Assembly (NCBI GenBank): GCA_024304995.1
Contig: JAMWZD010000001.1
Span: 641,472-705,471, forward strand
Direction: 5' to 3'
DNA: 64,000 bases
Source: Rickettsiales bacterium
Lineage (GTDB): Bacteria > Pseudomonadota > Alphaproteobacteria > Rickettsiales > UBA998
The notes beneath the pieces are model-generated. The model had not been told where the DNA came from. It did no database searches and saw only the letters and a list, made by a program, of their open reading frames with translations. The translations under genes and the position numbers were made by a program. Shown piece by piece: positions 6,577 to 34,493 of this stretch (its first letter is position 1; every line of letters starts with the position of its first letter).

Positions 6577-6721
6577 TTCCCCACCAAAATCGCTTTACAG
6601 AGTTTTCAATATATAATAATATACAAAGTATCGCACATGCCTATGTCTCTTCGTAGTTATGCAATGACGGAAATTTGTTGTTAACCCTTGGGCGTTGCCC
6701 TATTAACCATAGGTTTGTGTT

Positions 6722-7966: not shown

Positions 7967-7971
7967 CGCCT

Positions 7972-9414
7972 ATGACGCAACTTGCCATCTTCATCATCCT
8001 GTATCTCATAGTATCTGCAGGCATTGGTGTCTATGCTGGGTTGCGCGTTAAGAACGCCTCGGACTTTCTGGTCGCGGGGCGTTCTTTGCCTGCTGGAGTG
8101 ACGATTGCCACCGTCTTTGCGACATGGTTTGGCTCCGAAGCAGTGCTGGGCATTCCCGCCACATTCATGGAAGAAGGGCTGGGAGGCATTATTGCAGACC
8201 CGTTTGGCGCGGGGCTGTGTCTGGTGTTTGTGGGTATATTCTTCGCACGCAGACTATACCGCATGAAATTGCTCACCATTGGTGATTTTTTCCGCCAGCG
8301 TTACGGCGCGAAAGTGGAATTGCTGGTGGCACTTGCCATCTGCATCAGCTATCTGGGCTGGGTGTCTGCACAGGTGATTGCGCTTGGTCTGGTGATTAAT
8401 ATCGTCTCCGCAGGAGCGATTTCTGTGTCACTGGGAATGATTCTCGGCATTAGCGCCGTCATGCTCTATACCATCTTCGGGGGCATGTGGTCTGTTGTGA
8501 TAACGGACATGGTGCAAATGCTGATGATTCTTGTTGGGTTGATGGTCGTTGCATTTCTGGTCGCTGATCGTATGGATGGCGGGGCAGAGGCAATCATCCT
8601 CCATGCTCAGGCACAGCAGAAATTTGTGGTGCTTCCAGAGGTCACCTTTGCATCTGCACTGGCGTTATTTGGCAGCTTTATTACACTGGCATTGGGGTCT
8701 ATTCCGCAGCAGGACGTGTTTCAGCGTGTCATGTCTGCCAAAAATGAAGATGTGGCGATGAAAGCCACCGTCACAGGCGGCGCATTTTATATGCTGTTTT
8801 GCTTTATCCCGATTTTCATCACTTACGGTGCGTTATTGCTGGAACCTGAACTGGCGCAGATGCATTTGGGCGAAGATGGTGATGCGCAACGCATTCTACC
8901 AGAATTTATCCTCAACACCACGCCTCTGCCCGTGCAGGTGATTTTCTTTGGTGCATTACTGTCTGCCATCATGTCCACCGCATCAGGCACATTGCTTGCG
9001 CCATCTGCCATTATTGCAGAAAACATCATCAAACCCGCTTTTAATTTAAGTGACACAGCGTTGCTTGTCGCTTTACGAGTGTGCGTTTTTGTTTTTGGAT
9101 TGGTGGTAACGCTCTATGCATATCTCAGCCACAGTGCAGGCTTAAGCATTTTTGAAATGGTGGAAAATGCGTATCTCGTCACTCTATGTGGGGCATTCGT
9201 GCCGCTGGCATTCGGAGTATATTGGAAACATGCCAACACCAGCGGTGCATTATGGTCTATCGCTTTGGGGGTTGGAAGCTGGGTCTGCATGGAAGTCTGG
9301 CAGATTCGTACTGAAGAAACATTGCTCGTGCCACCGCAAGTGACCGGCTTATGCTTTGCGATTATTGGGATGATGGCAGGAAGTTTTCTCAGCAAAAAAC
9401 AAACAATTCGATAA
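7972..9414 (+). CDS. sodium:solute symporter family transporter
   Basis: 480 aa, polytopic. N-terminal VAGRSLP motif typical of the SSF family. Confidence 0.85.
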
Positions 9415-12950: not shown

Positions 12951-13973
12951 ATGCAACTTAAACCCCGTGACCTTCCAGCATATCTCAAAAACCCCGCTGC
13001 CTATAAAGCCGTGCTGATTTACGGCCCGGATGAAGGGCTGGTGCGTTCACGAAAAGATGCGATCTTAAAAACGATGGGGGTGAGCAAGGATGACCCGTTT
13101 GCCTATAATGCATATGACAGCCCGCAAATTGCTGATGAACCCTCATTGTTGCATGAAGGGTTAAGTGCCACCACATTGATGGGAGATGCACCCGTCATTG
13201 CCATTGCGCAGGCAACAGACAAAATTACTGCGCATGTGAAATCTGCACTGGAAAGCATCACCCAACCCAACCCGCTCATCATCACGGCAGGGGATTTGCA
13301 GAAACGTTCATCCCTTCGCAGTTTTTTTGAAGATGCTAAAGCGCGGGATGTTGCGAGCATTCCATGTTATCGTGACGAAGGCGCAAGCCTTGCGCAATTG
13401 GTGCGCAGCTTTCTGCAGGCACGCAAAATTGAAGCCTCCCCCCAACTGATAACCTTGCTGAGCGAACAGCTTGGCAATGACCGCGCAGTGACTGTCAGCG
13501 AACTGGAAAAACTGGATTTATATCTGGGAGAACGTCGCAGATTAAGCGAAGATGATATTGAAAAGATTCTTGCCAACAACCAGCACAGAGAAAGCAGTGA
13601 TGCATTGCTGGATGGATTATGTGGCAATCAGGCTAATTTTTATGAAAAATATGATGCGCTGATCGCTGCAGGAGAACAGCCCATTGCGCTGCTTCGTCTG
13701 CTTGGGCGGATTATGCAACAATTGCTGGATGCCAAAGCCATGCAGCAGCAGGATCAGCTTTCCCCTGCATCCGCTGTGGAACGATTGCGCCCATTTGTGT
13801 ATTTCAAAGATAAGCCGCGATATATAAACATCCTTAGCCGCATGGATATGCCACATCTGCTCAGCCTCATGTGCAATGTGCAGGATGCTGAACTGCAAAT
13901 TAAGCGAGGAGCATTACACCACGAACTGATTATATCGCAGATGCTTATGTTAAGGAGAACACTTCCTAACTAA
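12951..13973 (+). CDS. holA: DNA polymerase III delta subunit
   Basis: 340 aa with the synteny position after lptE. N-terminal LIYGPDEGL motif. Confidence 0.85.
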   Translation: MQLKPRDLPAYLKNPAAYKAVLIYGPDEGLVRSRKDAILKTMGVSKDDPFAYNAYDSPQIADEPSLLHEGLSATTLMGDAPVIAIAQATDKITAHVKSALESITQPNPLIITAGDLQKRSSLRSFFEDAKARDVASIPCYRDEGASLAQLVRSFLQARKIEASPQLITLLSEQLGNDRAVTVSELEKLDLYLGERRRLSEDDIEKILANNQHRESSDALLDGLCGNQANFYEKYDALIAAGEQPIALLRLLGRIMQQLLDAKAMQQQDQLSPASAVERLRPFVYFKDKPRYINILSRMDMPHLLSLMCNVQDAELQIKRGALHHELIISQMLMLRRTLPN

Positions 13974-14082: not shown

Positions 14083-14670
14083 TTGACTAACAATTCCAAA
14101 AACTTTCATTATACAATAAGTAATATCTTTGAAAACGAATTAAAGATAGATGATCCTGCGTACACTCCAGGAAGTGTGGTAAATTGGATCTTTGAACAAG
14201 CTCGTTTAGACAATATACGTGATATATCAGCAATGAAGTTACAAAAATTACTTTATTTTATGCATGGAAATTATTTAAGATCTTTTAATAAACCTCTAGT
14301 TAATGAATATGCTCAAGCTTGGGACTATGGTCCTGTTTTTCCATCTGTTTATCATGAATATAAAACCAATGGATCTAAAGCTATTCCACTCAATGATATA
14401 AATTTAATGAGAGAATATGACACAAATATCAAAAAGTTTGTTCCGCTAATAGTAAACCGTAATGACAAAGAAACCATAACTATTTTACGAAATACATGGG
14501 AAAAATATAAAGATAAAAGCGCTAGTTATTTATCTGATCTAACTCATAGACCTGATGATGATAACCCTTGGATTATAATAAGAAATATATCTAAAGAAGA
14601 GAAAATATCGAACATATCAACTCCCAATAGCATTATCAAAAAATATTTTGATGAAAATAACGACTTATAG
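14083..14670 (+). CDS. Panacea (DUF4065) domain protein, PanA/SocA-like antitoxin
   Basis: MKLQKLLYFMHGNYL...AQAWDYGPVFPSVYHEYK matches the DUF4065 core. TTG start with a strong RBS. Very AT-rich (13/60 GC in the first 60 nt). Confidence 0.8.
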   Translation: MTNNSKNFHYTISNIFENELKIDDPAYTPGSVVNWIFEQARLDNIRDISAMKLQKLLYFMHGNYLRSFNKPLVNEYAQAWDYGPVFPSVYHEYKTNGSKAIPLNDINLMREYDTNIKKFVPLIVNRNDKETITILRNTWEKYKDKSASYLSDLTHRPDDDNPWIIIRNISKEEKISNISTPNSIIKKYFDENNDL

Positions 14671-14679
14671 TTCAATGTG

Positions 14680-15240
14680 ATGGATGATGAGGAAATAAGA
14701 TTAGAAGAAGAGGCGAAGAAAAATGTTGCTATTGCTTATGGTAATGCACATAGAAACAGAGCTATCACTTTAGGTAAAAGACTAAAATGCTGGTATTATA
14801 TAATTGTTGGTGAAGTAATCTTATTAATTGCATCTTTTTTTGTATATAACTGTTTGTTCACAAAAAGCATTAACACAATTAAAGAAAGTCTATGCGAAGC
14901 AAAGTATTGTTACTTAGAAGCATCACAGATTCTCACAGTTTACTATATAGGGAAAGCTAGTTTTGTAAGTACTTTTATAATAATATTAATATGGACACTT
15001 AAACGTGTTACTCGTTTACAAGCTATGAGAATGATTCACTCAGACAAAGCCGTCATGGCAAACACTTTACAAACACTATTAGGTACAGAATTAGATAAAA
15101 ATTCAATTTTACGTCAAGCAACCAAAAATATGTTTAGCTCTTCTTTCGAAGTCATAAATACAAAAAAGAAAAACAAATCTTCTGAAATTATAGAATTAAA
15201 GGAATTATTGAATACTTTACTAAAAGAAAAAGAGGATTAA
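14680..15240 (+). CDS. hypothetical two-TM protein, candidate toxin partner of the Panacea protein
   Basis: Starts 10 nt after the upstream stop. Two TM helices (WYYIIVGEVILLIASFFVY and FVSTFIIILIWTL) and a charged coiled-coil-like tail. No recognisable family. Confidence 0.5.
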   Translation: MDDEEIRLEEEAKKNVAIAYGNAHRNRAITLGKRLKCWYYIIVGEVILLIASFFVYNCLFTKSINTIKESLCEAKYCYLEASQILTVYYIGKASFVSTFIIILIWTLKRVTRLQAMRMIHSDKAVMANTLQTLLGTELDKNSILRQATKNMFSSSFEVINTKKKNKSSEIIELKELLNTLLKEKED

Positions 15241-15690: not shown

Positions 15691-15745
15691 ATAAGACGAA
15701 TTTACGTAATAACAATATTATTTCTGGCAAATTATGCCCTGCCCC

Positions 15746-15774
15746 TTCACAACCGCTTCAAATTCACTTATATT
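15746..15774 (+). promoter_or_regulatory. sigma70-like promoter candidate for ssrA
   Basis: TTCACA, 17-nt spacer, then TATATT. Lies about 85 nt upstream of the acceptor-piece 3' end. Confidence 0.4.
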
Positions 15775-15780
15775 AAAAGG

Positions 15781-16180
15781 GTTGGTAACAACTATGGTAA
15801 TAGAGCTGAAACTGGAATAAGCGACCTGGACCCGGGGGCAGTACCCGGCATCTCCACCTGATGAGTTGGTGGTTGGTAGTGATTCGTTGGTAGATTGCAA
15901 ACCACCAACTACATACTAACCGACTCCTCAGGTGGGGATGACACAGCTTCGACAGGCGTAATAAAGAGTGGATGTTTACCCGGTATGAGCAATACCGATT
16001 GCCCACAAGGCAACAACATGCTCACATTCAATAAGTGCAAACGATAACAACGCACTTGTTGCTGCTAACGACAACAACGTCGTAGCTGCTTCTATTGCTG
16101 CCTAAGGGACGCAATAAATAAGCACTAGCAGTGAACGCGGTCTGGGGGGCGCCGGGCAACAGAATGCCTCCCGCTTGATT
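15781..16180 (+). ncRNA. ssrA: two-piece (circularly permuted) tmRNA
   Basis: T-arm CCGGG-GGCAGTA-CCCGG plus CATCTCC-ACC ends at 15858. The 5' acceptor strand GGGGATG...CTTCGAC starts downstream at 15934, and the two strands pair with a G3-U. Tag ORF 16037-16105 starts with GCA and ends in ..IAA-TAA. The outer ends are approximate. Confidence 0.8.
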
Positions 16181-18398: not shown

Positions 18399-18488
18399 TC
18401 GGCAAAAACACAGCATTGTCACTTGACCCTTACGGCAAAAAACCTTATTCTTCCCAGAATTTGCCTAGAACCTAACTTTTGGACGTGT

Positions 18489-19655
18489 ATGACTGATTCT
18501 TCTTCATTCCTGCCCCCGTATAATGCCATACTAGTAATGGAAAACGGGGATGAGTTTTACGGATATGGTATTGGGCGTGAGGGAACCGTGTATGGTGAGT
18601 TATGCTTTAACACTGCCATGAGCGGCTATCAGGAAATTCTGACTGACCCGTCTTATTACGGGCAGATTATCAATTTCACCACACCGCATATCGGCAATGT
18701 AGGCTGCAATCTGGAAGATATTGAATCTCAGGTAAAATCAGCGCGTGGCTGCGTGATACGTGAAGCCATCACCTCCCCTTCCAGCTGGCGCTCAAGAGGC
18801 AACTTTAATCTCTGGCTGGATAATCAGGGAATTACAGGGATCAGCGGTATCGACACTCGCGCATTAACCTCCTTCATCCGCACACATGGTCATCCGAAAA
18901 TCGCCATAGCCTATCATGCAGATGGGCTGGATGCGATTGACATCAGCACCATTCACGCAGATCTGGCAGAAACAGACTCACTCAAAGGTGCAGAACTCAC
19001 CGAATTTGTGACCGAACCCGAAAAACGCAACTGGTCAGAAAGCATCTGGGAACTGGAACATGGATATGGCGAGAATGCCAATACATCCTTCCACGTGGTG
19101 GCGATTGATTATGGCGCGAAAATGAACATTCTGCGCCTGCTGACGGCGAAAGGCTGCAAGGTGACGGTTGTGCCAGGCAATACAGATGCAAAAACCATTA
19201 TGAAGCTGAATCCTGACGGAGTATTTCTTTCCAATGGCCCAGGTGACCCGTCTGCCACAGCGCATTTTGCACTCCCTGTCATTAAAGAATTATTACATGC
19301 CAACATGCCCATTTTTGGCATTTGTCTTGGGCATCAGCTGCTTGCACTGGCGCTGGGCGCAAAGACTGAAAAAATGTATCAGGGGCATCGCGGTGCAAAC
19401 CATCCTGTAAAAAATCTTCTAAGCAACAAAGTGGAAATCACCAGCCAGAATCATGGTTTTGTGGTGCATAGTGATTCCCTGCCTTCCAACGTGGAAATCA
19501 CCCATCTTTCGCTATTTGATGGCACGATTGAGGGCATCAAAAGCAAAGAAAAACCTGCCTTCTCTGTGCAATATCACCCCGAATCCTCCCCTGGCCCGCA
19601 TGACAGCGAATATCTCTTCCAGCAATTTGTAGACATGATGCAGGGGCGTGCGTGA
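18489..19655 (+). CDS. carA: carbamoyl-phosphate synthase small subunit
   Basis: GATase motif ICLGHQLL and the HGFVV/HPE triad region. Start trimmed to the ATG at 18489. Confidence 0.95.
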   Translation: MTDSSSFLPPYNAILVMENGDEFYGYGIGREGTVYGELCFNTAMSGYQEILTDPSYYGQIINFTTPHIGNVGCNLEDIESQVKSARGCVIREAITSPSSWRSRGNFNLWLDNQGITGISGIDTRALTSFIRTHGHPKIAIAYHADGLDAIDISTIHADLAETDSLKGAELTEFVTEPEKRNWSESIWELEHGYGENANTSFHVVAIDYGAKMNILRLLTAKGCKVTVVPGNTDAKTIMKLNPDGVFLSNGPGDPSATAHFALPVIKELLHANMPIFGICLGHQLLALALGAKTEKMYQGHRGANHPVKNLLSNKVEITSQNHGFVVHSDSLPSNVEITHLSLFDGTIEGIKSKEKPAFSVQYHPESSPGPHDSEYLFQQFVDMMQGRA

Positions 19656-20017
19656 TGGATGCAATCCATAATGATAGCTCTGCACCTCCCGCCATCCATC
19701 ATGCGTTGCTAAAAGATGCTGATATTGATGATACGGATTTCTTGCGCGATATTGCCGCCCTGCCTTATGTGGAGCGTATCCTGTTATTTGGTTCGCGCAC
19801 AACACAGGATTATATGGAAGGCGCGGATCTGGACATCGCCGTAGACTGCCCTGATGCAAGCGATGAAGAATGGCATCATATCACGGACATAGCAGAACGT
19901 GCCTATACCTTGCTTTCCATAGATTGCGTCCGACTGGACACCCTAAAAGATGGGTTTTTCAAAGAACAGATTTTGCAGCACAGCAAAGTGATTTGCGATA
20001 AGCGTGGCGGTGCGTGA
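19655..20017 (+). CDS. minimal nucleotidyltransferase (MNT, HI0073-like antitoxin)
   Basis: ILLFGSRTTQDYMEGADLDIAVD (GS...DxD). Its ATG overlaps the carA TGA (TGATG). Confidence 0.85.
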   Translation: MDAIHNDSSAPPAIHHALLKDADIDDTDFLRDIAALPYVERILLFGSRTTQDYMEGADLDIAVDCPDASDEEWHHITDIAERAYTLLSIDCVRLDTLKDGFFKEQILQHSKVICDKRGGA

Positions 20018-20433
20018 TGACAGACATCACACTGGTAACCCATGCCGTCACGCAAACGCGCAACGCGCTGAACCGTTTAGACGAAGCGATTGGCGAACCG
20101 CTGGATTCTCATGCGTTCATGCTGGATGCCACTTTGCAGCGCTTTGAATATAGCTACGAAATGCTGTGGAAAACGCTTCGCAAATTGTTTGCGCTCAAAC
20201 ATATCCGCGTGAGTAACGCATGGGATGCCTTTAAAGAAGCCTATGCGCAACAGCTTATCAGTGATAAAGTCCTATGGAAACGCATTATAGAAGACCGCAA
20301 CCGCACGGTGCATCATTATTCTAACGAAGATGCCACCGCCATTTATCACCGCGTGTGCGATGAATATTTTTTGGCGATGACCGCGTTATTAGATGTGATT
20401 GAACGAGAACTGCAACATGAGTTTGTGGGGTGA
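20017..20433 (+). CDS. HEPN-domain protein, HI0074-type nucleotidyltransferase substrate-binding family (toxin)
   Basis: LQRFEYSYEMLWKTLRK and the Rx4H motif RNRTVHHY. Its ATG overlaps the MNT TGA (TGATG). Confidence 0.85.
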   Translation: MTDITLVTHAVTQTRNALNRLDEAIGEPLDSHAFMLDATLQRFEYSYEMLWKTLRKLFALKHIRVSNAWDAFKEAYAQQLISDKVLWKRIIEDRNRTVHHYSNEDATAIYHRVCDEYFLAMTALLDVIERELQHEFVG

Positions 20434-20458
20434 TGTAACGCTGGAGAGTAAATAGCAA

Positions 20459-21562
20459 ATGGCTTTTGATAAACCAACATTAATTATAATTGGTGCTGGA
20501 GCAAGTTTACCTTACAACTATCCTCTTGGTGATGATTTGATTAATGAGATAATCACGGCAAGCGATGAAGTTATTCATCGTGGGAAAATTACTGAAGCAT
20601 ATAGTCACTTAAAAGATATGCTATTGTTGCATGACCCTACTAGTATTGATACGTTTATGAAAAATCATGCAACAACTGGGGCAAATAGCGATTATAATAT
20701 ACAGAGTATATGCAAACAATTGATTGCAGAAATTATATTAAAAAAAGAAAACGCAGAATATTTTGATAAAAATAAACAGGTAGGAGGCAATCTAAATTGG
20801 TATCGTTACCTTGCACACGCTATTTTAGAAGATATTGATTCATTAAAAGACCCTAATGCTGCGCTTCCATTTAGAATTATTACCTTCAATTATGACGTAT
20901 CTCTAGACTATTATCTATTGACACGTATTTTAGCTGCTCCGCTACTATCCGATGAAGAAAAGCAAATTATATTAAAGAAGCTAGGCAATAATATTATACA
21001 TGTATATGGTGCTGTGAGAAACGTACCATGGGAAGATACAACATCACATGAAACAATTATTAGACATCTAATTAATAAACAACTAATAAAACCATCTAGC
21101 AATGCAATGACGATAAACGGTTCTGAGCAATATCTTGGTAGAGAAGACATTGAAATTCTTTATGGCATTGCAAATTTAAAAACTCAAAATTCTAAAAGCG
21201 TATTTTCTCCTTGTAAGGCGCAGGACAGCCATGACTTCAAGAACTTTTGCAATCAAGCTGCATCAAATTTACGCATCATTGGTGAAGAAAGAGCTTCAGG
21301 CAAGCAATCGCTTGCACCTTACTATGAGTTTATGCTAAATGAAATGAAGAAAATTATGTTTCTTGGGTTTGGCTTTGACAAAACTAATATGGAACTTGTT
21401 TTTTTATCACACAGACTATCTTCTCTGGAAACTATTGAATATACCAATTATGGAAACAAAAAGAAAATAAACGATTTTGTGCATTCGTACTTTGAGGTTG
21501 TTGACATTTCTTGTTCAACCAAAGACGTATATAATGCACTAGTTAATGACTTTAACTTATAG
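20459..21562 (+). CDS. stand-alone SIR2-like (SIR2_2-type) protein
   Basis: Motifs IIIGAGASLPYNYPLG, ITFNYDVSLD, IIHVYGAV and IMFLGFGFDKTN in SIR2-family order. AT-rich (20/60 GC in the first 60 nt). Confidence 0.6.
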   Translation: MAFDKPTLIIIGAGASLPYNYPLGDDLINEIITASDEVIHRGKITEAYSHLKDMLLLHDPTSIDTFMKNHATTGANSDYNIQSICKQLIAEIILKKENAEYFDKNKQVGGNLNWYRYLAHAILEDIDSLKDPNAALPFRIITFNYDVSLDYYLLTRILAAPLLSDEEKQIILKKLGNNIIHVYGAVRNVPWEDTTSHETIIRHLINKQLIKPSSNAMTINGSEQYLGREDIEILYGIANLKTQNSKSVFSPCKAQDSHDFKNFCNQAASNLRIIGEERASGKQSLAPYYEFMLNEMKKIMFLGFGFDKTNMELVFLSHRLSSLETIEYTNYGNKKKINDFVHSYFEVVDISCSTKDVYNALVNDFNL

Positions 21563-21603
21563 CTACATAGTGATAGCTTGAATACCTGAATAAGAGATAC
21601 ATC

Positions 21604-24600
21604 ATGCCTAAAAGAACCGACATACATTCCATCCTCATCATTGGCGCGGGGCCTATTGTTATTGGGCAGGCGTGTGAATTTGATTATTCTGGAACGCAGG
21701 CGTGCAAGGCATTGCGGGAGGAAGGGTATCGGGTGATTCTGGTGAATTCCAACCCTGCCACCATCATGACAGACCCTGACATGGCGGATGCGACCTATAT
21801 TGAGCCCATCACACCTGAATTTGTGGAAAAAATTATCGCCAAGGAAAAGCCAGATGCTCTGCTGCCCACGATGGGTGGGCAAACGGCGTTGAATTGCGCC
21901 AAAGCGCTGGCAGAACGTGGCGTGCTGGATGCACATGGTGTGGAACTGATTGGTGCAAAGTTGGAAGCCATCAACATGGCGGAAGACCGTCAGCTTTTTG
22001 CAGATGCCATGAAGCGCATTGGGTTGCAATGCCCTAAACAAGCTACGGCACATTCGATGGATGAAGCATTTAAAGTGCTGGATGAAGTCGGTCTGCCTGC
22101 CATTATCCGCCCATCATTCACCATGGGTGGCGCAGGCGGCGGGGTTGCCTATAACCGTGAAGAATTTGAGCAGATCGTTAAAAGCGGGCTGGAAGCCTCT
22201 CCCACCACAGAAGTGCTGATCGACGAGTCTATTCTTGGCTGGAAAGAGTTTGAAATGGAAGTGGTGCGTGACCATGCGGATAACTGCATCATCATCTGCG
22301 CGATTGAAAATATAGACCCGATGGGCGTACATACAGGCGATTCCATGACCGTTGCACCTGCGCTGACGCTGACCGACAAAGAATATCAGATTATGCGTGA
22401 TGCTTCCATTGCGGTGCTACGTGAAATTGGCGTGGATACGGGTGGTTCCAACGTGCAGTTCGCTGTAAACCCTGAAAATGGACGCATGATCGTGATTGAG
22501 ATGAATCCGCGTGTGTCACGTTCCTCTGCGCTGGCATCCAAAGCGACAGGTTTCCCGATTGCTAAGGTGGCGGCAAAACTGGCAGTGGGCTATACGCTGG
22601 ATGAAATCACCAACGATATTACCCGCGCCACACCTGCGTCTTTTGAGCCAAGCATTGATTATGTCGTGACGAAAATCCCGCGTTTTGCATTTGAAAAATT
22701 CCCAGAAGCAGAAAATTCACTGACCACGTCTATGAAATCCGTCGGTGAAGCGATGGCGATGGGGCGCAATTTTGCGGAATCCATGCAAAAAGCATTGCGT
22801 TCGCTGGAAACTGGACTGACTGGCTTCAATGAAGTGGTCAAAAATTCAAAGAACCCTACGGATGAAATTAAGAGCCGTCTGGCGCAACCAACACCAGACC
22901 GTCTGCTTATAGTGGCTGATGCGTTCCGCCATCATTTCAGTCTGGAAGATATTGCAGCCATCACCAAATATGACCCGTGGTTTTTAGAACAAATCCGCAA
23001 TATTGTGGAAATGGAACAGCAACTGAAAGTGAAAGGGCTGCCAACTGACAAACGCTCATTACTGCACATCAAAAAAATGGGCTTTAGTGACGACCGTCTG
23101 GCAGAACTCACGCAGCATGAAACCAAAACTGTGGCATCACTACGCGAAAATCTTGGTGTGTTCCCCGTTTACAAACGGATTGATACCTGCGCAGGCGAAT
23201 TTGATGCACTGACACCCTATATGTATTCCACCTATGAAGGGGATGGCGTTCATGATGGAATGTGTGAGTCTGACCCGACAGACAAGGAAAAAATCATCAT
23301 TTTAGGCGGCGGACCGAACCGAATTGGGCAGGGGATTGAGTTTGATTATTGCTGCGTTCATGCGGCCTATGCCCTTTCTGAAGCGGGTTTTGAAACCATC
23401 ATGGTGAATTGCAACCCTGAAACAGTCTCTACCGATTATGACACATCTGACCGTCTGTATTTCGAACCACTGACTGCCGAAGATGTGATCAATCTTATCC
23501 GCAAAGAGCAGGAAAATGGTTTTGTACGTGGTGTGATTGTGCAGTTTGGCGGGCAAACGCCACTGAAACTGGCGCGCGCACTGGAAGCAGCGGGCATCCC
23601 GATTATCGGCACATCACCCGATGCGATTGACCTGGCGGAAGACCGTGAGCGCTTCCAGAAGCTACTTTATTCTTTGGAGTTGAAGCAACCTGCCAACACT
23701 ATCTGCCATAGTGAAGAAGAAGTGCTGGAACAGGCTGACGTGATGGGATACCCCGTGGTGGTGCGCCCATCTTACGTGCTTGGCGGGCGGGCGATGGCAA
23801 TTATTTATGATTCTGAGCGTCTCAAAAAATATTTGCATGACGTATTGCGTGAATTTCAGGACAACCCGATTTTGCTGGATTCATTCTTAAAAGATGCGAT
23901 TGAAATTGATGTGGATGCACTCTCAGACGGGCAGCATGTGCATGTTTGTGGCATCATGGAACATATTGAGGAAGCAGGGATTCACTCAGGTGATTCCGCC
24001 TGTTCCCTGCCGCCACATACGCTCAGTGATGAATTGATAGATGACATTAAGATTCAAACCATTCAGCTTGCACGCGCACTGAACGTGGTTGGATTGCTCA
24101 ACATTCAGTTTGCCGTGAAAGATGGCGATATCTTCATTATTGAAGTGAACCCACGCGCCAGCCGCACTGTACCGTTCGTGGCAAAAACGATTGGCATTCC
24201 TGTAGCAAAATATGCATCCCGCCTGATGGCAGGTGAAAAACTTGCGGATCTGGGGCTGTCGCATGACAGCATCATTGACATGGAAGCATTAGGGCATGTG
24301 GCTGTGAAGGAAGCGGTATTGCCATTCAAACGCTTCCCTGGCAGTGATGCTATTTTAGGTCCTGAAATGAAATCCACAGGTGAAGTGATGGGCATTGACA
24401 GCTCATTCGGACGCGCCTTTGCCAAAGCCTATATGGCGACGGGCAGCAAACTTCCTAATGAAGGCAATGTGTTCGTGTCCGTTAAGGACAGTGACAAACA
24501 TGCGCTGATAGACATTTGCACCTCGCTGCGTGAACTGGGCTTCAGCATTGTTGCGACCAAAGGAACGCAGGAGTTTCTGGCAGGGCATGATATTGCTGCA

Positions 24601-24861
24601 TCGGTTGTGAACAAGGTTCGTCAGGGGCGGCCACATATTGTTGATAGTCTGAAGGATGGTAAAATTCAGTTTGTGATTAATACGACCGAAGGCGCAAAAT
24701 CCATCAGCGATAGCGCATCCATTCGAAAAACATCATTGCAGCAGAATATCCCATATTGCACGACTATCGCAGGGACGCGCGCCTTGATTGAAGCCATGAA
24801 GTTTATTCACAAGGAACGTGGCATGAGCGTGAAAGCCATTCAGGAGTACTTCACCGCGTGA
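21604..24861 (+). CDS. carB: carbamoyl-phosphate synthase large subunit
   Basis: 1085 aa with duplicated ATP-grasp halves and an MGS-like C-terminus. Confidence 0.97.
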
Positions 24862-24920: not shown

Positions 24921-27900
24921 ATGAAATTAGCCGACTTGTATACAACAACCTGCCTTAGTGCCGTTCTGCTCAGCATGACATGTGCAGGCACGGTGCTGGC
25001 TGCCCCTGAAGGCGCGCAGGTTGCTGCTGGTTCAGCCAATATAAGTTCACCCCAGTCAGGGCATGTGGTAATTCAACAGCACACAGATAAAGCTGTAATC
25101 AACTGGAACCAGTTTGATATTAAGGCAGGAGAACATACAGAATTTCGCCAGCCCTCTCAAAATGCATCCACCTTAAACCGAATTAAAGGGAACGCACCAA
25201 GCAACATCAATGGCAGATTAACTGCCAATGGCAATATTGTTGTGGTGAATCCTCATGGTGTGGTGTTTGGAAAGAATGCCAAAGTGGATGTGGGCGGGCT
25301 GGTTGCCAGCACAGCCGACATTGCTGATGAGAATTTCATGAAAGGCACACTGGGTTTTGACCGCCCTGGCAAAGCAGATGCAGCCATCATCAATCATGGT
25401 GTGATTACCGCAAAAGATGCAGGACTGGTAGGGTTGGTAGCACCGCACGTGGAAAATCATGGTACGATACAGGCAAGATTAGGAAAAATAGTTTTGGCAT
25501 CAGGTGAAACAGCAACAGTTGATATGCACGGAGACGGGTTAATTCAGGTTGCTGCAAGCGGAGACAGCAAAAAACTGCTTGTTTCGCAGCAGGGAACGTT
25601 ACTTTCAGAAGGCGGCACTATTGCATTGACTGCAGCAGATGGCCGCAACATGCTTGACAGCCTGATTCAGGCAGATGGAGCATTATCAGCTGCTTCTATC
25701 CAGCATTCTGGTGGCAGAATTGTGATTACAGGTCAGGATAGCGATATAGAAGTAAATGCTGATATGGATGTTTCTGGTATGGATAAGGCTGGAAGCCTAT
25801 ATATTGGCGGGGATTTTAAGGGCAATGGCACATTACCCACCGCCAGAAATGTAACGCTAAACAAGGATGCTGTCATACGCGCAAATGTGAGAGGCGATGG
25901 CAAAGGCGGCACGGTGATCGTCTGGTCAGACGAACAGACAAGATTTGCTGGCACAATTGAAGCAAAAGGGAGCGCAGGCGGTTTTGTTGAAACATCAGGT
26001 AAACAAAAGCTGAACATTGCTGATTCTGCATCTGTGGATACGCAAAATGGCACATGGCTCCTGGATCCTCAGGATTTTACCATCGCAGATTCTGGTGGAG
26101 ACATGACGCCAGCTGCATTGCAGACCAATCTGGCAAGTAACAATGTCACCATTACCAATGCAGCAGGTGCAGGGAACGGTGACATCACCATATCAGATGC
26201 AGTTAGCTGGAGCAGCAGCAACACGCTGACACTGGATGCCATCCGCCACGTTCAGGTGGATGATGCCATCAGCAACAGCGCAGGGGGTAATCTGATTTTG
26301 CGAGCAGATAAGAATGGCACTGGCACGGGAACAGTCAATTTTGGTGGCGGTGGGTCTGTCAGCATGAATACGGGGCGTAGTGATATATATTATAATCCCA
26401 CCAGCTACACCACACCAACCAATTATGCAGCGAATGTGACAGGCACGTTTGATGCATGGATGTTAGTGCATGATGTGAATGATTTGCAGGATATCAGTGG
26501 CAATAAAAGCGGTAATTATGCACTCAGCAAAGATATTGATGCCAGCGCAACAACGGGTTGGAATGGTGGTTTAGGGTTCAATGCGATTGGGTTCAGCGGT
26601 AGCGAATTTACTGGAAAATTTAACGGTCAGAATTTTGCTATTAATAACTTATTTATCAACCGTCCTTCTCAGGGCAATCTGGGTATGTTTGGCGGCATTG
26701 ACAGCGCAGAAATTAAAAATGTGCGTGTATTATCCGCAAACATTACTGGTCAGGATGATACTGGCATATTAGCGGGCGATGTTGAGCAATCCACCATAAC
26801 TAACGTGCATACCTCAGGTAATGTTACTGGAAACATTAGTGTTGGCGGTCTTATTGGTGAAGCTTCAGACAGCACCACTATCACTCAGTCATCTTCCGCA
26901 GCAAATGTTTCAGGCAATGGTGAAGTGGGCGGACTTATTGGTGACCACGAAATGGCATCTTCAACCAGCAATAGTTTTGCCACAGGAAACGTAACATCCG
27001 CAGGAGATAATATCGGCGGACTCATTGGTAATAATGACAGCGTTACCGTGTCCGATAGTTATTCTACGGGATCTGTTACAGGAAATTACCGCGTTGGTGG
27101 TTTGGTAGGTGAAAACAGCACAAATTCCACAATAACCAATAGCTATTCTACATCCAATGTAAATGCCGATAGAAATGTAGGCGGTTTAACAGGAGACAAT
27201 AACAATAACTCCACCATTACGAACAGTTATGCAACAGGCATCATTACAGCAGGCGACGACAACGCAGGAGGGTTGGTGGGTCTCTTAAGTGGCAATTCAA
27301 CCATTACTACCAGCTATGCAACTGGTAATGTAAGCGGAGAAGATGATGTTGGCGGTTTGGTTGGGGATTCAGAAGGCACCATTTCCAACAGCTACGCTAC
27401 GGGAAGCGTTACTGCAAGAGACAATGTGGGTGGTTTTGCAGGAAGACATGATAATGGGGCAACAACGTCAAATAGTTATGCACTCGGCAATATATCTGGA
27501 AGAGATAATGTTGGCGGGTTTATAGGTCTTAATGACAGCGCAACGTCTACGAATAATTACGCCACGGGTACGGTATCTGGAAGAAATTCAGTTGGCGGTC
27601 TGGTTGGTAGCAACGCTGGCACGTCCTCAGTCACTCAAAGTTATGCAACTGGCAATATCACTGCCACTGCTGGCTCACTGAGTATTGGAGGGTTAGTAGG
27701 GGAACATAAAGATAACGCAACCATAACTTCCAGTTATGCGACGGGAGACATTTCGGGTGATGGTGACTGTGTAGGTGGATTGGTTGGTTGGGCAATGGAC
27801 AATGCACGCACAGAAACAAGTTTCTCAACAGGTAACATTACAATAGGAGCGGGAAGAAATATTGGTGGCCTAACAGGGTTAGTTTCGAACGATACTGTCA

Positions 27901-28907
27901 CGCTCAACAGTTACGCAACAGGTATAGTGAATGGTGATGATGATGTTGGCGGACTAGTTGGGGAAATGAGAGAAAATGCAGTTTTAAACTTTGTATATTC
28001 AACTGGGCAGGTTTCAGGGAATACAGATGTTGGTGGCTTAATCGGGCTACGCGCCAATGCATCCAGTGTCACCAATGGATATTGGAATGTGACCACATCA
28101 GGGCAGGCAACCAGCAACGCAGGTACGGAAACAGGGCTGACCACAGCACAAATGATGGACGCGGCATCTTTCACAGGATTTGACATTGCCACAACAGGTG
28201 GCAGCTCCAATGTATGGCGCATTTATGAAGGTAACACTGCCCCATTACTGCGATCTTTTTTAACGCCGCTTAACGTAAAAGCGAATGATGCTACAATGAC
28301 ATTCAATGGCAGTGCTTACAATGGTAGCGAAGGGGTAACTTATACCACCTTCAACACGGGCGATAATAGCAGCAATTTACTGGGAACACTAGATTATGGC
28401 AGCTCTGATACAGATATTGGAACGTATGTTTTAACGCCAAGCGGTTTGTATGATGACCAATTCGGATATGATATTAGTTACAGCACAGGAACATTAAACA
28501 TTACTGTTGCACCACCTGCACCTTCTGCACCAACAATACAGCCAACATCACCAAAAACCAAAGTGCCGACAACTGTTCCAGAAACCACTCCTCCATCATC
28601 ACCTCAGACATTACCAGCGCCTGAGACTCCTGTGGTTCAAACGCCCCCCACTTCCAAACCAGAATCAAAGCCTCGCTCCACATCAATTCCCACAACGGTA
28701 GAAATTGTATCGCAAAAGCCAGCCCCTGAAAGCAACGGAACTGCTTCAGTTGCAAAAGGCACGCAGCGTTCACCCCAGCACACTTCGTCAAATAAGATGA
28801 TTTTTGTTGAAACAGATGAGACCAGCAATGCAACCTCTAAAGGGGATATTATAATCAGCAAACCGCTTGCAAAAATGCTTAATCTGACCCGCTCATTATT
28901 TGATTAA
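24921..28907 (+). CDS. TPS-domain (filamentous haemagglutinin N-terminal) exoprotein with GLUG repeats and a Pro-rich tail
   Basis: Signal peptide. TPS motifs INWNQFDI and VVNPHGVVFG. About 16 GLUG-type repeats (VGGLVG). C-terminal P/T/S-rich segment. Confidence 0.85.
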   Translation: MKLADLYTTTCLSAVLLSMTCAGTVLAAPEGAQVAAGSANISSPQSGHVVIQQHTDKAVINWNQFDIKAGEHTEFRQPSQNASTLNRIKGNAPSNINGRLTANGNIVVVNPHGVVFGKNAKVDVGGLVASTADIADENFMKGTLGFDRPGKADAAIINHGVITAKDAGLVGLVAPHVENHGTIQARLGKIVLASGETATVDMHGDGLIQVAASGDSKKLLVSQQGTLLSEGGTIALTAADGRNMLDSLIQADGALSAASIQHSGGRIVITGQDSDIEVNADMDVSGMDKAGSLYIGGDFKGNGTLPTARNVTLNKDAVIRANVRGDGKGGTVIVWSDEQTRFAGTIEAKGSAGGFVETSGKQKLNIADSASVDTQNGTWLLDPQDFTIADSGGDMTPAALQTNLASNNVTITNAAGAGNGDITISDAVSWSSSNTLTLDAIRHVQVDDAISNSAGGNLILRADKNGTGTGTVNFGGGGSVSMNTGRSDIYYNPTSYTTPTNYAANVTGTFDAWMLVHDVNDLQDISGNKSGNYALSKDIDASATTGWNGGLGFNAIGFSGSEFTGKFNGQNFAINNLFINRPSQGNLGMFGGIDSAEIKNVRVLSANITGQDDTGILAGDVEQSTITNVHTSGNVTGNISVGGLIGEASDSTTITQSSSAANVSGNGEVGGLIGDHEMASSTSNSFATGNVTSAGDNIGGLIGNNDSVTVSDSYSTGSVTGNYRVGGLVGENSTNSTITNSYSTSNVNADRNVGGLTGDNNNNSTITNSYATGIITAGDDNAGGLVGLLSGNSTITTSYATGNVSGEDDVGGLVGDSEGTISNSYATGSVTARDNVGGFAGRHDNGATTSNSYALGNISGRDNVGGFIGLNDSATSTNNYATGTVSGRNSVGGLVGSNAGTSSVTQSYATGNITATAGSLSIGGLVGEHKDNATITSSYATGDISGDGDCVGGLVGWAMDNARTETSFSTGNITIGAGRNIGGLTGLVSNDTVTLNSYATGIVNGDDDVGGLVGEMRENAVLNFVYSTGQVSGNTDVGGLIGLRANASSVTNGYWNVTTSGQATSNAGTETGLTTAQMMDAASFTGFDIATTGGSSNVWRIYEGNTAPLLRSFLTPLNVKANDATMTFNGSAYNGSEGVTYTTFNTGDNSSNLLGTLDYGSSDTDIGTYVLTPSGLYDDQFGYDISYSTGTLNITVAPPAPSAPTIQPTSPKTKVPTTVPETTPPSSPQTLPAPETPVVQTPPTSKPESKPRSTSIPTTVEIVSQKPAPESNGTASVAKGTQRSPQHTSSNKMIFVETDETSNATSKGDIIISKPLAKMLNLTRSLFD
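26673..28080 (+). repeat. coding tandem repeats (~28-30 aa GLUG units)
   Basis: Units of the form NSYATGNVSGxxxVGGLVGxxxxxSTIT recur about 16 times. Confidence 0.8.
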
Positions 28908-32526: not shown

Positions 32527-32712
32527 AGCGTGAGCCTATAGGACATCAGCGCGTCTGTCTATGCTAGGTCCTTACTATTATAATTTGACAGCAAATAAAT
32601 AATGTAACATTTATGTATCTCCCAACTATACATCAACAGTGCTAACTTGCTTGCAACATGGCTGCATAATATTACATTAGCTTTTTCAAACATAATAGTA
32701 TTCAATAATAAT

Positions 32713-33846
32713 ATGAGATTAAATTCGCTTTACATAAATAACTTCAAATGCCTACAAGATTTCACCATTGAGCAGCTGGGCAATGTGAATCTCATTGTAG
32801 GTCAAAATAATATTGGTAAGACTACAATCCTTGAAGCTATACGCTTATATGCAACGAATCCACGAGGTGGTTTGAGGAATTTAATTGCGAAAATAAGTGA
32901 AGAACATGATGAGTTTCTTTATGAAGAAGACCCTGAATATAATCGGCGTTATCGAGCAATAAATTTTGAGTCCCTTTTTTACAATCGATGCTTCCCCGAA
33001 TCAAACGAAGATTCTATTGAAATTGGCTCAGTAAGAAACGGTCAAGACTCTCTGATCATAAAAGAAGCATTCCAGCGTGTCTATGTTAAAGCTGATGAAC
33101 CTGATACGATAGTCAAAGAAATTATTGAGAAAGAGGAGATCGATAATATAATTGATGATGCTGTTGAGCAGAATATTTTAGCAACAAAAAATGGGAAATC
33201 CGTAATATTAAACGTAGTTGAACGTTTACTCCCCATGAGGCACAGGCTAAGTACTATCTCACATTTTGATGATATTCCTTGTAAATATATTCCTACACAG
33301 CTTCTACACCAAAATGATTTAGCTAACGAATGGGATGACATTGTCATTACTTCGTATGAAGAAAAAATACTCAATGCTATAAAAATTCTCGAAAATAATC
33401 TTGAGCAAATTGCGGCAATTAAAAATCATCGTGATGACAGAACCTTCAAATTAAAAACAAAACAGAGTGAAAACATTCCTCTAGCTAGTATGGGAGATGG
33501 CGTTTTTAGAATTTTGCAGTTAGCAATTAAAGCGGTAAAAGCGCAAGATGGCTTTTTACTTGTTGATGAATTTGAGAATGGACTACATTACAAAACTCAA
33601 TATAAAGTCTGGAAATGGTTGTTTGAGCTATCTCAAGAACTCAACATTCAAATCTTTGCAACCACACATAGTTGGGACACCATAGAAAGCTTTTCAAAGG
33701 CTGCTCACGATAATACTAATGTACAAGGAAGTTTGTTCAGAATAGCTAAAAGTTTGAAAGAGGCAGATAATAATAAAATTATAGCTACTACTTTTAATGA
33801 AGACAGCTTAAAAACCATTACTCAACAACAAGTTGATGTAAGATGA
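32713..33846 (+). CDS. ABC/SMC-type AAA ATPase (AAA_15/21-like)
   Basis: Walker A GQNNIGKTT, signature-like SMGDG, Walker B LLVDEFENGLH and H-loop ATTHS. AT-rich (18/60 GC in the first 60 nt). Confidence 0.8.
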   Translation: MRLNSLYINNFKCLQDFTIEQLGNVNLIVGQNNIGKTTILEAIRLYATNPRGGLRNLIAKISEEHDEFLYEEDPEYNRRYRAINFESLFYNRCFPESNEDSIEIGSVRNGQDSLIIKEAFQRVYVKADEPDTIVKEIIEKEEIDNIIDDAVEQNILATKNGKSVILNVVERLLPMRHRLSTISHFDDIPCKYIPTQLLHQNDLANEWDDIVITSYEEKILNAIKILENNLEQIAAIKNHRDDRTFKLKTKQSENIPLASMGDGVFRILQLAIKAVKAQDGFLLVDEFENGLHYKTQYKVWKWLFELSQELNIQIFATTHSWDTIESFSKAAHDNTNVQGSLFRIAKSLKEADNNKIIATTFNEDSLKTITQQQVDVR

Positions 33847-34493
33847 TTAATAATCCCAAATTGCTTATTGTCGAAGGAAGTTCAGATAAAGCATTTTTCA
33901 AAAGCGTATTAAAAAGTATAGAAATTGACGCCGAAATTATGGTTGCATACCCATCCGAAACGGGGACAGTTGACGGTAACGGGAAAGGCAATGCTATAAA
34001 AACGCTAGTGTTAAGAGCAAAACTTCATAATATTGAACCTGTGCAAACAGGCATAATTTTAGATGCTGATCTCACAACAAAAAAACAAGGATTTGAAAAA
34101 ACCAAATATGCCGTTAAATCTGCCATAGAACCATTCTTTAATATTACCAATGAAACCACTACTGACGGAATTATCTTTCATGGTGAAGCAGGCATTACAC
34201 CGATTGGTTTGTGGATAATGCCTTCAAATAGTGAAGACGGCAATTTAGAAGATTGGATTGTGAAGAATCTTAACAACACTGAAATAAGCAAACACCAAAT
34301 TGCTAAAAAATTGTTAGATGACTTGGATGACTCAATCAAAGAATTTCAATTACATCATCTGAGCAAAGCAGAGCTACTTACTATGCAGGCTTGGAAAAAC
34401 AGACCCAAAAGCACATGTTCAGTCAATCAGATTAATACGCAAAATCAGGATTACAAAAGTCTGGTCACTTGGTTTAAGAAGATCTTTGACTAA
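33843..34493 (+). CDS. TOPRIM-like (DUF4435/RloB/DUF3226-type) protein
   Basis: ATGA overlap with the ATPase gene. N-terminal LLIVEGSSDKAFF and GIILDADL resemble the TOPRIM Glu and DxD motifs. Confidence 0.55.
   Translation: MINNPKLLIVEGSSDKAFFKSVLKSIEIDAEIMVAYPSETGTVDGNGKGNAIKTLVLRAKLHNIEPVQTGIILDADLTTKKQGFEKTKYAVKSAIEPFFNITNETTTDGIIFHGEAGITPIGLWIMPSNSEDGNLEDWIVKNLNNTEISKHQIAKKLLDDLDDSIKEFQLHHLSKAELLTMQAWKNRPKSTCSVNQINTQNQDYKSLVTWFKKIFD

Follow-up and report, generated by a model that had tools for sequence, protein, structure and literature searches.

A probable hotspot for defence-type genes between carA and carB in a Rickettsiales bacterium and its relatives

In the genome of a Rickettsiales bacterium (GenBank assembly GCA_024304995.1), the genes for the two subunits of carbamoyl-phosphate synthase, carA and carB, are held apart by an insert of 1,948 nt, counted from the carA stop to the carB start. 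The insert carries a minimal nucleotidyltransferase (MNT) gene, a HEPN gene and a gene for a stand-alone SIR2-like protein, called ORF4 here (open reading frame 4). The content of the junction differs among related genomes, which indicates that the insert is accessory and that the junction is a hotspot, of which at least four states have been seen. The reading that we favour, with moderate confidence, is that the carA|carB junction is a small hotspot flanked by core genes, in which promoter-less cargo of the defence type has been inserted in the orientation of the operon. Our analysis covers a stretch of 64,000 nt, referred to as the window (contig JAMWZD010000001.1, positions 641,472-705,471, forward strand), and the corresponding loci of other genomes.

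Results

Layout and integrity of the locus

A first-pass annotation made from the sequence of the window had described the order carA, MNT, HEPN, SIR2-like gene and carB, all on the + strand, and this order is borne out by the ORF table and by the sequence itself (Table 1). The two TGATG stop/start overlaps that it had reported, at 19653-19657 (carA/MNT) and 20015-20019 (MNT/HEPN), and the gaps of 25 nt before ORF4 and of 41 nt between ORF4 and carB are exact to the base. The carA product matches TIGR01368 (442.7 bits, for a cut-off of 307), PF00988 and PF00117, and that of carB matches NF003671 (1754.8 bits) and TIGR01369 (1529.9 bits). We place the carA start at the ATG at 18489, which is kept in two relatives; a longer ORF that opens on a TTG at 18423 is not conserved. 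Based on carA, the nearest species representatives in a scan of a genome collection are a Rickettsiales metagenome-assembled genome (MAG) at 63% and a Micavibrio MAG at 56%; the species of the window itself was not among the matches.

The assembly is of the metagenome type and the composition of ORF4 is sharply different, two features that might betray an assembly chimera or a decaying remnant whose cargo consists of pseudogenes. We regard the probability of such an artefact as negligible. A second, separately assembled contig of 9 kb (run SRR19707674) carries the five-gene arrangement with 100% identity, which makes a mis-join unlikely. In addition, all ORFs are intact, with their catalytic motifs and every family-invariant residue kept, and the same junction is likewise occupied in two relatives, L002 and L121.

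Table 1. Features of the carA-carB locus, in coordinates of the window
Feature	Position	Strand	Description
Promoter-like site upstream of carA	18423-18451	+	TTGACC, 17 nt, TATTCT; pattern match only
carA	18489-19655	+	small subunit of glutamine-hydrolysing carbamoyl-phosphate synthase, 388 aa
MNT gene	19655-20017	+	putative antitoxin, 120 aa; ATG overlaps carA stop
Imperfect direct repeat (~50 nt), left copy	19666-19716	+	apparent degenerate pre-carB spacer and carB start; now MNT N-terminal extension
HEPN gene, HI0074 / NTase_sub_bind type	20017-20433	+	putative RNase toxin, 138 aa; ATG overlaps MNT stop
HEPN-to-ORF4 spacer	20434-20458		25 nt; GGAGAG upstream of ORF4 start; no stable structure (z +1.3)
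ORF4	20459-21562	+	stand-alone SIR2-like gene, 367 aa
Direct repeat, right copy	21565-21615	+	41-nt spacer and first four carB codons (ATGCCTAAAAGA)
carB	21604-24861	+	large subunit of carbamoyl-phosphate synthase, 1085 aa

Occupancy of the junction in relatives

Two of the relatives, L121 and L122, were found through the 90% cluster of carB, and L002 through its homologue of ORF4. The relatives are different species (77-81% nucleotide identity in carA and carB). In L122 and L123, whose carA and carB products are 87 and 94.5% identical to those of the window, there is no insert, and carA overlaps carB by 8 nt (..AATCATGCCTAA..). In L121 (81 and 90%), the junction holds a gene for a CcrM-like type II methyltransferase of 276 aa and an ORF of 195 aa. 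L002 (66 and 80%) has only a SIR2-like homologue, 47% identical to ORF4 by BLASTP and 53% in a global alignment, followed by a gap of 224 nt before carB. As for the more distant L008 and L009, nothing is inserted between carA and carB, and in L129 (carA 67%) the two genes are not adjacent. The window, L121 and L122 have the upstream cNMP-binding/FHA gene in common, which identifies the three junctions as the same locus.

The methyltransferase gene of L121 (insert 6591-8008) matches the PADLOC model MTase_II with 331 bits, and the 195-aa ORF has no match in Pfam, NCBIfam or PADLOC. The two may form a restriction-modification pair, in which the restriction enzyme is only assumed. All four junctions of this insert overlap, and the original ATGCCTAA overlap now serves as the end of its last ORF. 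The first ~22 residues of the methyltransferase are an extension that includes ELPQKR, which resembles the start of the carB product, MPKR. All the ORFs of the inserts were accounted for, and no integrase or transposase is among them. The sole feature that looks mobile is found in L002, where an element of ~155 nt resembling a miniature inverted-repeat transposable element (MITE) lies between the SIR2-like gene and carB (9178-9332), with the terminal inverted repeats ACTCCCCCCTTGAGGGGGAGT and ACTCCCCCTCAAGGGGGGAGT and apparently flanked by TA.

The first-pass annotation had taken the three interposed genes as accessory and had proposed a comparison of the carA-carB interval among relatives. 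The empty junction of L122/L123, the other cargo of L121 and the lone SIR2-like gene of L002 agree with an accessory nature, and the five-gene order is not universal. The same annotation held that this position would make the genes hard to lose. This does not stand, as three genomes with carB products 90-94.5% identical have three different contents, a sign of turnover and not of fixation. A simpler reading is that selection filters what enters the junction: only inserts that are co-oriented, free of terminators and compatible with carB translation would be viable, and genes without promoters would gain expression by landing there. One point to be set against the hotspot is that just four relatives have a carB product at least 80% identical, all of them separate species, and that the comparison cannot tell gain from loss.

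Composition and history of the insert

The GC content is 48-49% in carA and carB, 48% in MNT/HEPN and 32.7% in ORF4, with 25% at third codon positions; the two cargo genes of L121 have 42% and 35%. The composition of ORF4, of its homologues and of the L121 cargo thus differs from that of the genome, and that of MNT/HEPN is the same. This difference in GC, together with the presence of the SIR2-like gene alone in L002, argues for two modules that would have been acquired on two separate occasions.

That MNT, HEPN and SIR2-like genes might instead be one three-component system, acquired as a single block, is very improbable in our view. They are contiguous, co-oriented and tightly spaced, a single imperfect direct repeat brackets all three, and both HEPN and SIR2 domains are generally frequent among defence effectors. 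A common origin is nevertheless hard to square with the step in GC from 48% in MNT/HEPN to 33% in ORF4 and with the SIR2-like gene that occupies the same site without MNT/HEPN in L002, and no relative of MNT or HEPN was found in any other SIR2-like locus examined.

The two copies of the imperfect repeat align locally with a score of 30, as compared with 14.8 +/- 2.6 for shuffled sequences, of which 0 out of 1000 reached 30. From ATC-ATGCCTAAAAGA onward, the sequence nearly equals that of the L122 junction, which is empty. MNT seems to have recruited a copy of the former pre-carB region as its first 17 codons, and its original start may have been the in-frame TTG at 19706. The C-terminal tail of the carA product (..MMQGRA) is unlike the tails of the relatives and therefore appears to have been remodelled at the insertion point. 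A junction repeat like that of the window was sought in L121 and L002 and was not found. We also considered a 10-nt repeat, GTGCGTGATG, present at both TGATG junctions. It brackets MNT only, and two-copy 10-mers are common in the region, with 14 families listed; we attribute it to chance or to the convergence of both junctions on one kind of stop/start overlap.

As for the route of entry, a candidate is recombination between homologous carA and carB flanks, which are highly conserved. The viral contigs yielded five matches at 27-29% identity, too distant to name a vector.

Transcription of the five genes

A scan for promoter and terminator patterns between 17500 and 26000 called no + strand promoter-like site between 18451 and 25114 and no + strand terminator-like site (hairpin and T-run) between 19322 and 21976. 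This agrees with the first-pass annotation, which had seen neither an internal terminator nor a clear promoter in the insert. The RNA regions at the junctions fold no better than shuffled sequences, save for a hairpin at the MNT/HEPN overlap that has no T-run. All three genomes with an occupied junction have their cargo in the orientation of carA and carB, and in two of them, the window and L121, it overlaps the adjacent genes or lies very close to them.

The promoter-like site upstream of carA has an equivalent in L121, at an equal distance from carA (TTGACG, 17 nt, TAAACT). In a three-way alignment of the carA upstream regions of the window, L121 and L122, with a mean column identity of 77%, the hexamers are conserved and are followed by a conserved AGAATTTGCCT. 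The latter block (within 18452-18488), just 3' of the putative -10 hexamer, is invariant in the three relatives and may be an operator or an element of the 5' untranslated region. A search of the whole window with Rfam found an alphaproteobacterial two-piece tmRNA at 15742-16175, in line with the class of the organism, and nothing else, hence no attenuator or riboswitch near carA. The co-orientation of the genes, their short or overlapping junctions, the lack of terminator-like sites and the conservation of the promoter-like site of carA all fit a single transcription unit. Judged by these sequence features, co-transcription from carA to carB appears likely.

Several observations pull in the other direction. 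The scan is crude, tuned to sigma-70 and blind to Rho-dependent termination, and shuffled sequence yields as many promoter-like and terminator-like sites or more. Between 69 and 103 nt before the carB ATG, in the AT-rich 3' end of ORF4, there are two perfect hexamers, TTGACA (21501-21506) and TATAAT (21530-21535), with a non-canonical spacing of 23 nt. In L129, carA is not next to carB, which implies that carB is expressed apart from carA in some members of the group. In L002, GC-rich hairpins are found in the 224-nt gap before carB.

The corresponding alternative is that the five genes are adjacent without forming one operon, and that the cargo and carB use promoters of their own inside the insert, for example at the 3' end of ORF4, so that no read-through is needed. 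We consider it possible but doubtful. The hexamers upstream of carB, the unlinked carA and carB of L129 and the gap with its MITE-like element that separates insert and carB in L002 would all suit it. The same is true of the tendency of AT-rich foreign DNA to make promoters, with five minus-strand promoter-like matches inside ORF4, and of the general knowledge that toxin-antitoxin pairs are usually self-regulated from their own promoter. Yet the spacing of the hexamers is outside the range of 16-18 nt, no + strand site was called there, and MNT starts on the carA stop codon, which leaves no intergenic space for a promoter. Nor does a terminator-like site follow carA, and the four overlapping junctions of L121 are hard to reconcile with separate units. 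We thus retain a single transcription unit, from carA to carB, as the better account.

The MNT-HEPN pair

The labels MNT and HEPN given in the first-pass annotation are supported by profile matches: to PF18765 (E 1.4e-10) and PADLOC PDC-S09 (E 2e-9) for MNT, and to PF08780 (E 3.9e-23) and TIGR01987, the HI0074 subfamily (80.9 bits, for a cut-off of 55.8), for HEPN. MNT has a GSx10DxD motif (GSRTTQDYMEGADLD; residues 46-60, nt 19790-19834), and the sequence RNRTVHHY of HEPN (residues 94-101, nt 20296-20319) fits RφxxxHxY. Both motifs are those of the type VII HepT/MntA systems, in which the tyrosine of RφxxxHxY is oligoAMPylated (PMC13000451).

Membership in type VII proper is disfavoured by the scores against the dedicated models, 38.8 bits for MntA (NF047752) and 21.2 bits for HepT (NF047751), both of which are below the equivalog cut-off of 60; a toxin-antitoxin function is something that we infer by analogy. 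As both proteins remain under the MntA/HepT cut-offs and HEPN passes that of TIGR01987, the pair is probably a sister family that works like type VII, and not a set of MntA/HepT equivalogs. By this account, MNT would AMPylate the tyrosine beside the RφxxxH RNase motif of HEPN and thereby keep HEPN inactive. The MNT stop and the HEPN start fall within a stable RNA hairpin (19985-20060; -28.6 kcal/mol, z -2.6, no T-run), through which the translational coupling of the two genes could be tuned.

The SIR2-like protein ORF4

The first-pass annotation had called the third interposed gene SIR2-like, a label that both fold and motifs uphold, with an active site that is non-canonical. The AlphaFold2 model, built from a 20-sequence alignment, is a single compact domain (pLDDT 80.4, pTM 0.84). 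In a Foldseek search of the PDB, the best 50 of 313 matches at E <= 10 are nearly all SIR2-family chains. The best match among those listed is the SIR2 subunit of E. coli SIR2-HerA (8sub_F, E 8.6e-6, TM 0.45), and the 17 matches at E <= 1e-3 are all chains of SIR2-HerA-type entries. SIRT2/3, DSR2, KomC, FAM118B, ThsA and Avs5 follow among those listed. The sequence identity of ORF4 to the solved SIR2 proteins in these matches is 10-14%.

Four motifs can be recognised, namely GAGAS (residues 12-16), TFNYD (142-146), HVYG (181-184) and FLGFGFD (301-307), and the first, second and fourth are invariant across 20 aligned homologues. Among 120 homologues, GAGxS is present in 110, TxNYD in 119 and Hx[Y/F/H]G in 118, with a His directly before the Gly in ~16 only. 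ORF4 retains all 34 family-invariant residues, which suggests that it is probably functional. The family is large, stand-alone, uncharacterised and essentially unannotated: its members have ~300-460 aa, and its cluster representatives number 9,755 at E <= 1e-3 and 1,506 at <= 1e-30. Neither a partner nor a fused sensor (HerA, ThsB, pAgo, STAND or the C-terminal domain of DSR) was found in the model or in the contexts of nine close homologues.

Sequence profiles reach the family only at its margins. PADLOC gives a weak SIR2 match to ORF4 (PDLC04087, E 8.7e-5). The homologues P0009 and P0011 score 17-21 bits against SIR2_2 (PF13289), under the cut-off of 24.5, and P0016, P0019, P0020 and others carry a precomputed match to it. 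ORF4 alone has no match among the sequences of solved structures; a profile of 20 sequences has marginal matches to KomC (E ~0.1) over GAGxS and the C-terminal motif.

It is tempting to speculate that ORF4 is an NAD+-consuming effector of abortive infection, which would be its most likely function, but we infer both the NADase activity and the role in defence, and a number of findings speak for caution. The TM-scores are only 0.40-0.46, and ORF4 has no Pfam match at E < 0.01, including to SIR2_2. A Tyr (Y183) takes the place of the canonical catalytic His of the HG motif in H181-V-Y183-G184, which makes the NADase activity uncertain. The invariant H181, two residues earlier, may serve instead. 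Finally, none of the validated defence systems that we found in the literature examined is a stand-alone SIR2 protein of such a size.

Genomic contexts of ORF4 homologues

Close homologues of ORF4 are found in various contexts. In L005 and L113, a topA gene on the minus strand is followed by the SIR2-like gene, pyrE and fliK, and in L007 the genes for an S11 peptidase, the SIR2-like protein and PyrE follow one another, the last two with an overlap. In L115, the SIR2-like gene comes after a methyltransferase-HNH gene and is divergent from pyrH, one gene away. It lies between a uracil-DNA glycosylase gene and trpE in L004, which is from the same metagenome as L121, and after an aldehyde dehydrogenase gene in L117 and L119. 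The identities of the pyrimidine genes are supported by TIGR01367 for pyrE (211 bits) and TIGR02075 for pyrH (331 bits). No neighbour is conserved across the nine close-homologue contexts. Homologues of the uracil-DNA glycosylase gene, trpE, pyrE, pyrH and topA were sought in the window as empty sites of the L004, L005 and L115 contexts, and none was found.

In all five contexts measured, the GC content of the SIR2-like gene is 9-16 points below that of its flanks. The comparison of L005 (3031-4188) with L113 (3199-4587) is informative as to how these genes evolve. Their DNA is 95% identical over the stretch that begins at the 3' end of the SIR2-like gene and includes pyrE and fliK, and it is 87% identical upstream, and the middle of the SIR2-like gene cannot be aligned; the SIR2-like proteins are 57% identical and the PyrE proteins 96%. 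This points to a hypervariable segment or to a recombination mosaic. A sensing surface under diversifying selection would be expected to have such a hypervariable central segment, and this part of the protein may act as the sensor. More distant members of the family are found beside HigB/HTH, AbiEii-type ATPase or RhuM genes, or 1 nt upstream of uvrB. The low GC, the hypervariable segment and the neighbouring toxin-antitoxin, Abi and RhuM genes make us favour a role in defence.

The proximity to pyrimidine genes was unexpected, and we see it as a lead and not as a result. It concerns two to three of five independent contexts, and the rough chance of at least two in five is ~1e-3, assuming ~10 pyrimidine genes and before post-hoc correction. 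It may be that the SIR2-like protein has no part in defence and is tied to pyrimidine or nucleotide metabolism, where it would modify or regulate carbamoyl-phosphate synthase or orotate phosphoribosyltransferase, or link NAD and pyrimidine pools, and its position between carA and carB would then be explained. This is unlikely in our estimation. In its favour, the closest homologues lie at carA|carB (window and L002), upstream of pyrE (L005, L113 and L007) and near pyrH (L115), pyrE is still the neighbour in L007, where neither outer flank is like that of L005, and the chance estimate is low, if uncorrected. Nevertheless, only two or three independent events are involved, the test was made post hoc, and other close homologues are found between the uracil-DNA glycosylase gene and trpE or after the aldehyde dehydrogenase gene. 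The closest relatives lack the SIR2-like gene at carA|carB, and the low GC of this gene, its hypervariable middle and the toxin-antitoxin, Abi and RhuM genes around its homologues are typical of defence. Moreover, no carA, carB, pyrE, MNT or HEPN gene was seen at 80 metagenome loci with distant SIR2-like homologues, so that a link to pyrimidine genes, if real, would be limited to the close subfamily.

Other islets and differences in the window

A second patch of low GC (28%) is found at 14083-15240, between a 340-aa ORF (12951-13973) and the tmRNA gene. It comprises two co-oriented ORFs, one for a SocA_Panacea protein (PF13274, E 2.8e-20) and one of 187 aa with hydrophobic stretches and no family match, and is probably a Panacea-type toxin-antitoxin pair. 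A low-GC defence islet at 32647-34493 encodes an AAA_15 ATPase, which matches PADLOC PDC-M38A with 401 bits (and AbiLi with 177 bits), and a DUF3226 protein, which matches PDC-M38B with 161 bits, and the genes share 4 nt. L122 has no insert at the equivalent site, which is flanked by putA on one side and by the cNMP-binding and PfkB genes on the other. Such small islets, set in a conserved backbone, seem to be characteristic of this genome. Downstream of carB, on the same strand and starting 60 nt after it, a gene for an exoprotein of 1328 aa with a TPS secretion domain and GLUG repeats extends over 24921-28907. In L122, this position is taken by a NUDIX gene of the opposite strand, a further difference between the relatives.

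Discussion

We propose that carA and carB overlapped or nearly abutted at the ancestral junction, and that the cargo of the present genome, an MNT-HEPN pair of the type VII kind and a stand-alone SIR2-like protein, arrived in separate events. Most likely, all five genes would be transcribed from the conserved promoter upstream of carA, with translation coupled at the two TGATG overlaps. As carB would need read-through of the cargo, only co-oriented and terminator-free inserts would be tolerated.

Defence islands usually span several kilobases and lie between transcription units. The carA|carB junction suggests that a hotspot can be no larger than the point at which two cistrons of a housekeeping operon overlap, where promoter-less cargo borrows the promoter of the operon and its ribosome traffic. 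If co-transcription holds true, toxin and effector genes would be placed under arginine and pyrimidine control, and the supply of an enzyme of arginine and pyrimidine synthesis would hang on foreign DNA. It would also offer a simple model of how small genomes with few intergenic regions take up defence genes. Independently of the junction, the analysis flags a large stand-alone SIR2-like family with a non-canonical HxYG motif as a candidate for experiments.

A further idea, to which we assign a low probability, is that a stand-alone SIR2-like subfamily has been selectively wired into the transcription units of pyrimidine genes (carA|carB, pyrE and pyrH). If so, the dose of the SIR2-like protein would track the pyrimidine and arginine status of the cell, and it would be induced when phage replication drains nucleotides. 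Alternatively, the protein would act on the pathway itself and link the NAD and pyrimidine pools. The position inside the operon would then be part of infection sensing, and not an accident of insertion tolerance, and carA|carB would be one case of operon-embedded micro-hotspots in small alphaproteobacterial genomes.

Separation of carA and carB has been met elsewhere. The two genes presumably have a large and variable spacer between them in Neisseria and an intervening ORF in Pseudomonas aeruginosa, and a limited literature search on split carA/carB returned nothing relevant. Among the loci collected here, S49 and M48 peptidase genes stand between carA and carB in four Nitrospirota MAGs that share them (L014 and L016-L018), ABC transporter genes in an uncultured bacterium (L013) and genes of the opposite strand in a Rhizobiaceae MAG (L010). 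The Nitrospirota and L013 arrangements likewise consist of co-oriented, unrelated genes. However, those interposed in Nitrospirota are of the housekeeping type and conserved, unlike the defence-type genes described here, which differ between congeners.

The MNT-HEPN pair shares with type VII HepT/MntA the position of the MNT gene, upstream of the HEPN gene and overlapping it, the GSx10DxD motif in MNT and the RφxxxHxY motif in HEPN, including the acceptor tyrosine. It differs in that HEPN belongs to the HI0074 / NTase_sub_bind family (PF08780, TIGR01987) and not to the HepT/DUF86 equivalog, and in that there is no separate promoter region, MNT starting on the carA stop codon.

As for ORF4, it has the SIR2 fold in common with the antiphage SIR2 NADases SIR2-HerA/Nezha, ThsA, DSR2, Avs5 and KomC and with the human sirtuins of the FAM118 type. 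Its layout resembles that of FAM118B, with the Rossmann GAGxS, the Asn of TxNYD and a His ~37 residues further on (cf. N163/H206), and its C-terminal GFGxD aligns with FIGYSLSD of KomC. In contrast to the antiphage enzymes, ORF4 is ~370 aa long and stands alone, with no HerA, ThsB, pAgo, STAND, fused sensor or conserved neighbour. Most members of its family have HxYG and not xHG, and it is missed by the Pfam model SIR2_2.

The closest parallels to the junction as a whole are the core defence hotspots (cDHS). Those of Pseudomonas aeruginosa, cDHS1 and cDHS2, are known for their defence content, with a median size of 26 kb for cDHS1 and no obvious mobile-element genes (PMC10250203), and integration hotspots of E. 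coli are flanked by conserved chromosomal genes (PMC10121019). The described hotspots sit between transcription units, often by tRNA, tmRNA or sRNA genes (PMC10250203, PMC10121019). Like them, the carA|carB junction has fixed core flanks and a content that is variable and sometimes empty, and its cargo is of the defence type, of lower GC save for MNT/HEPN, and without obvious mobile-element genes. Unlike cDHS1, it holds no more than 0-2 kb and 0-3 genes. It also differs from these hotspots in its place within an operon, where it falls between the two subunit genes of a single enzyme, and in having a promoter-less cargo that overlaps the stop and start codons of its neighbours.

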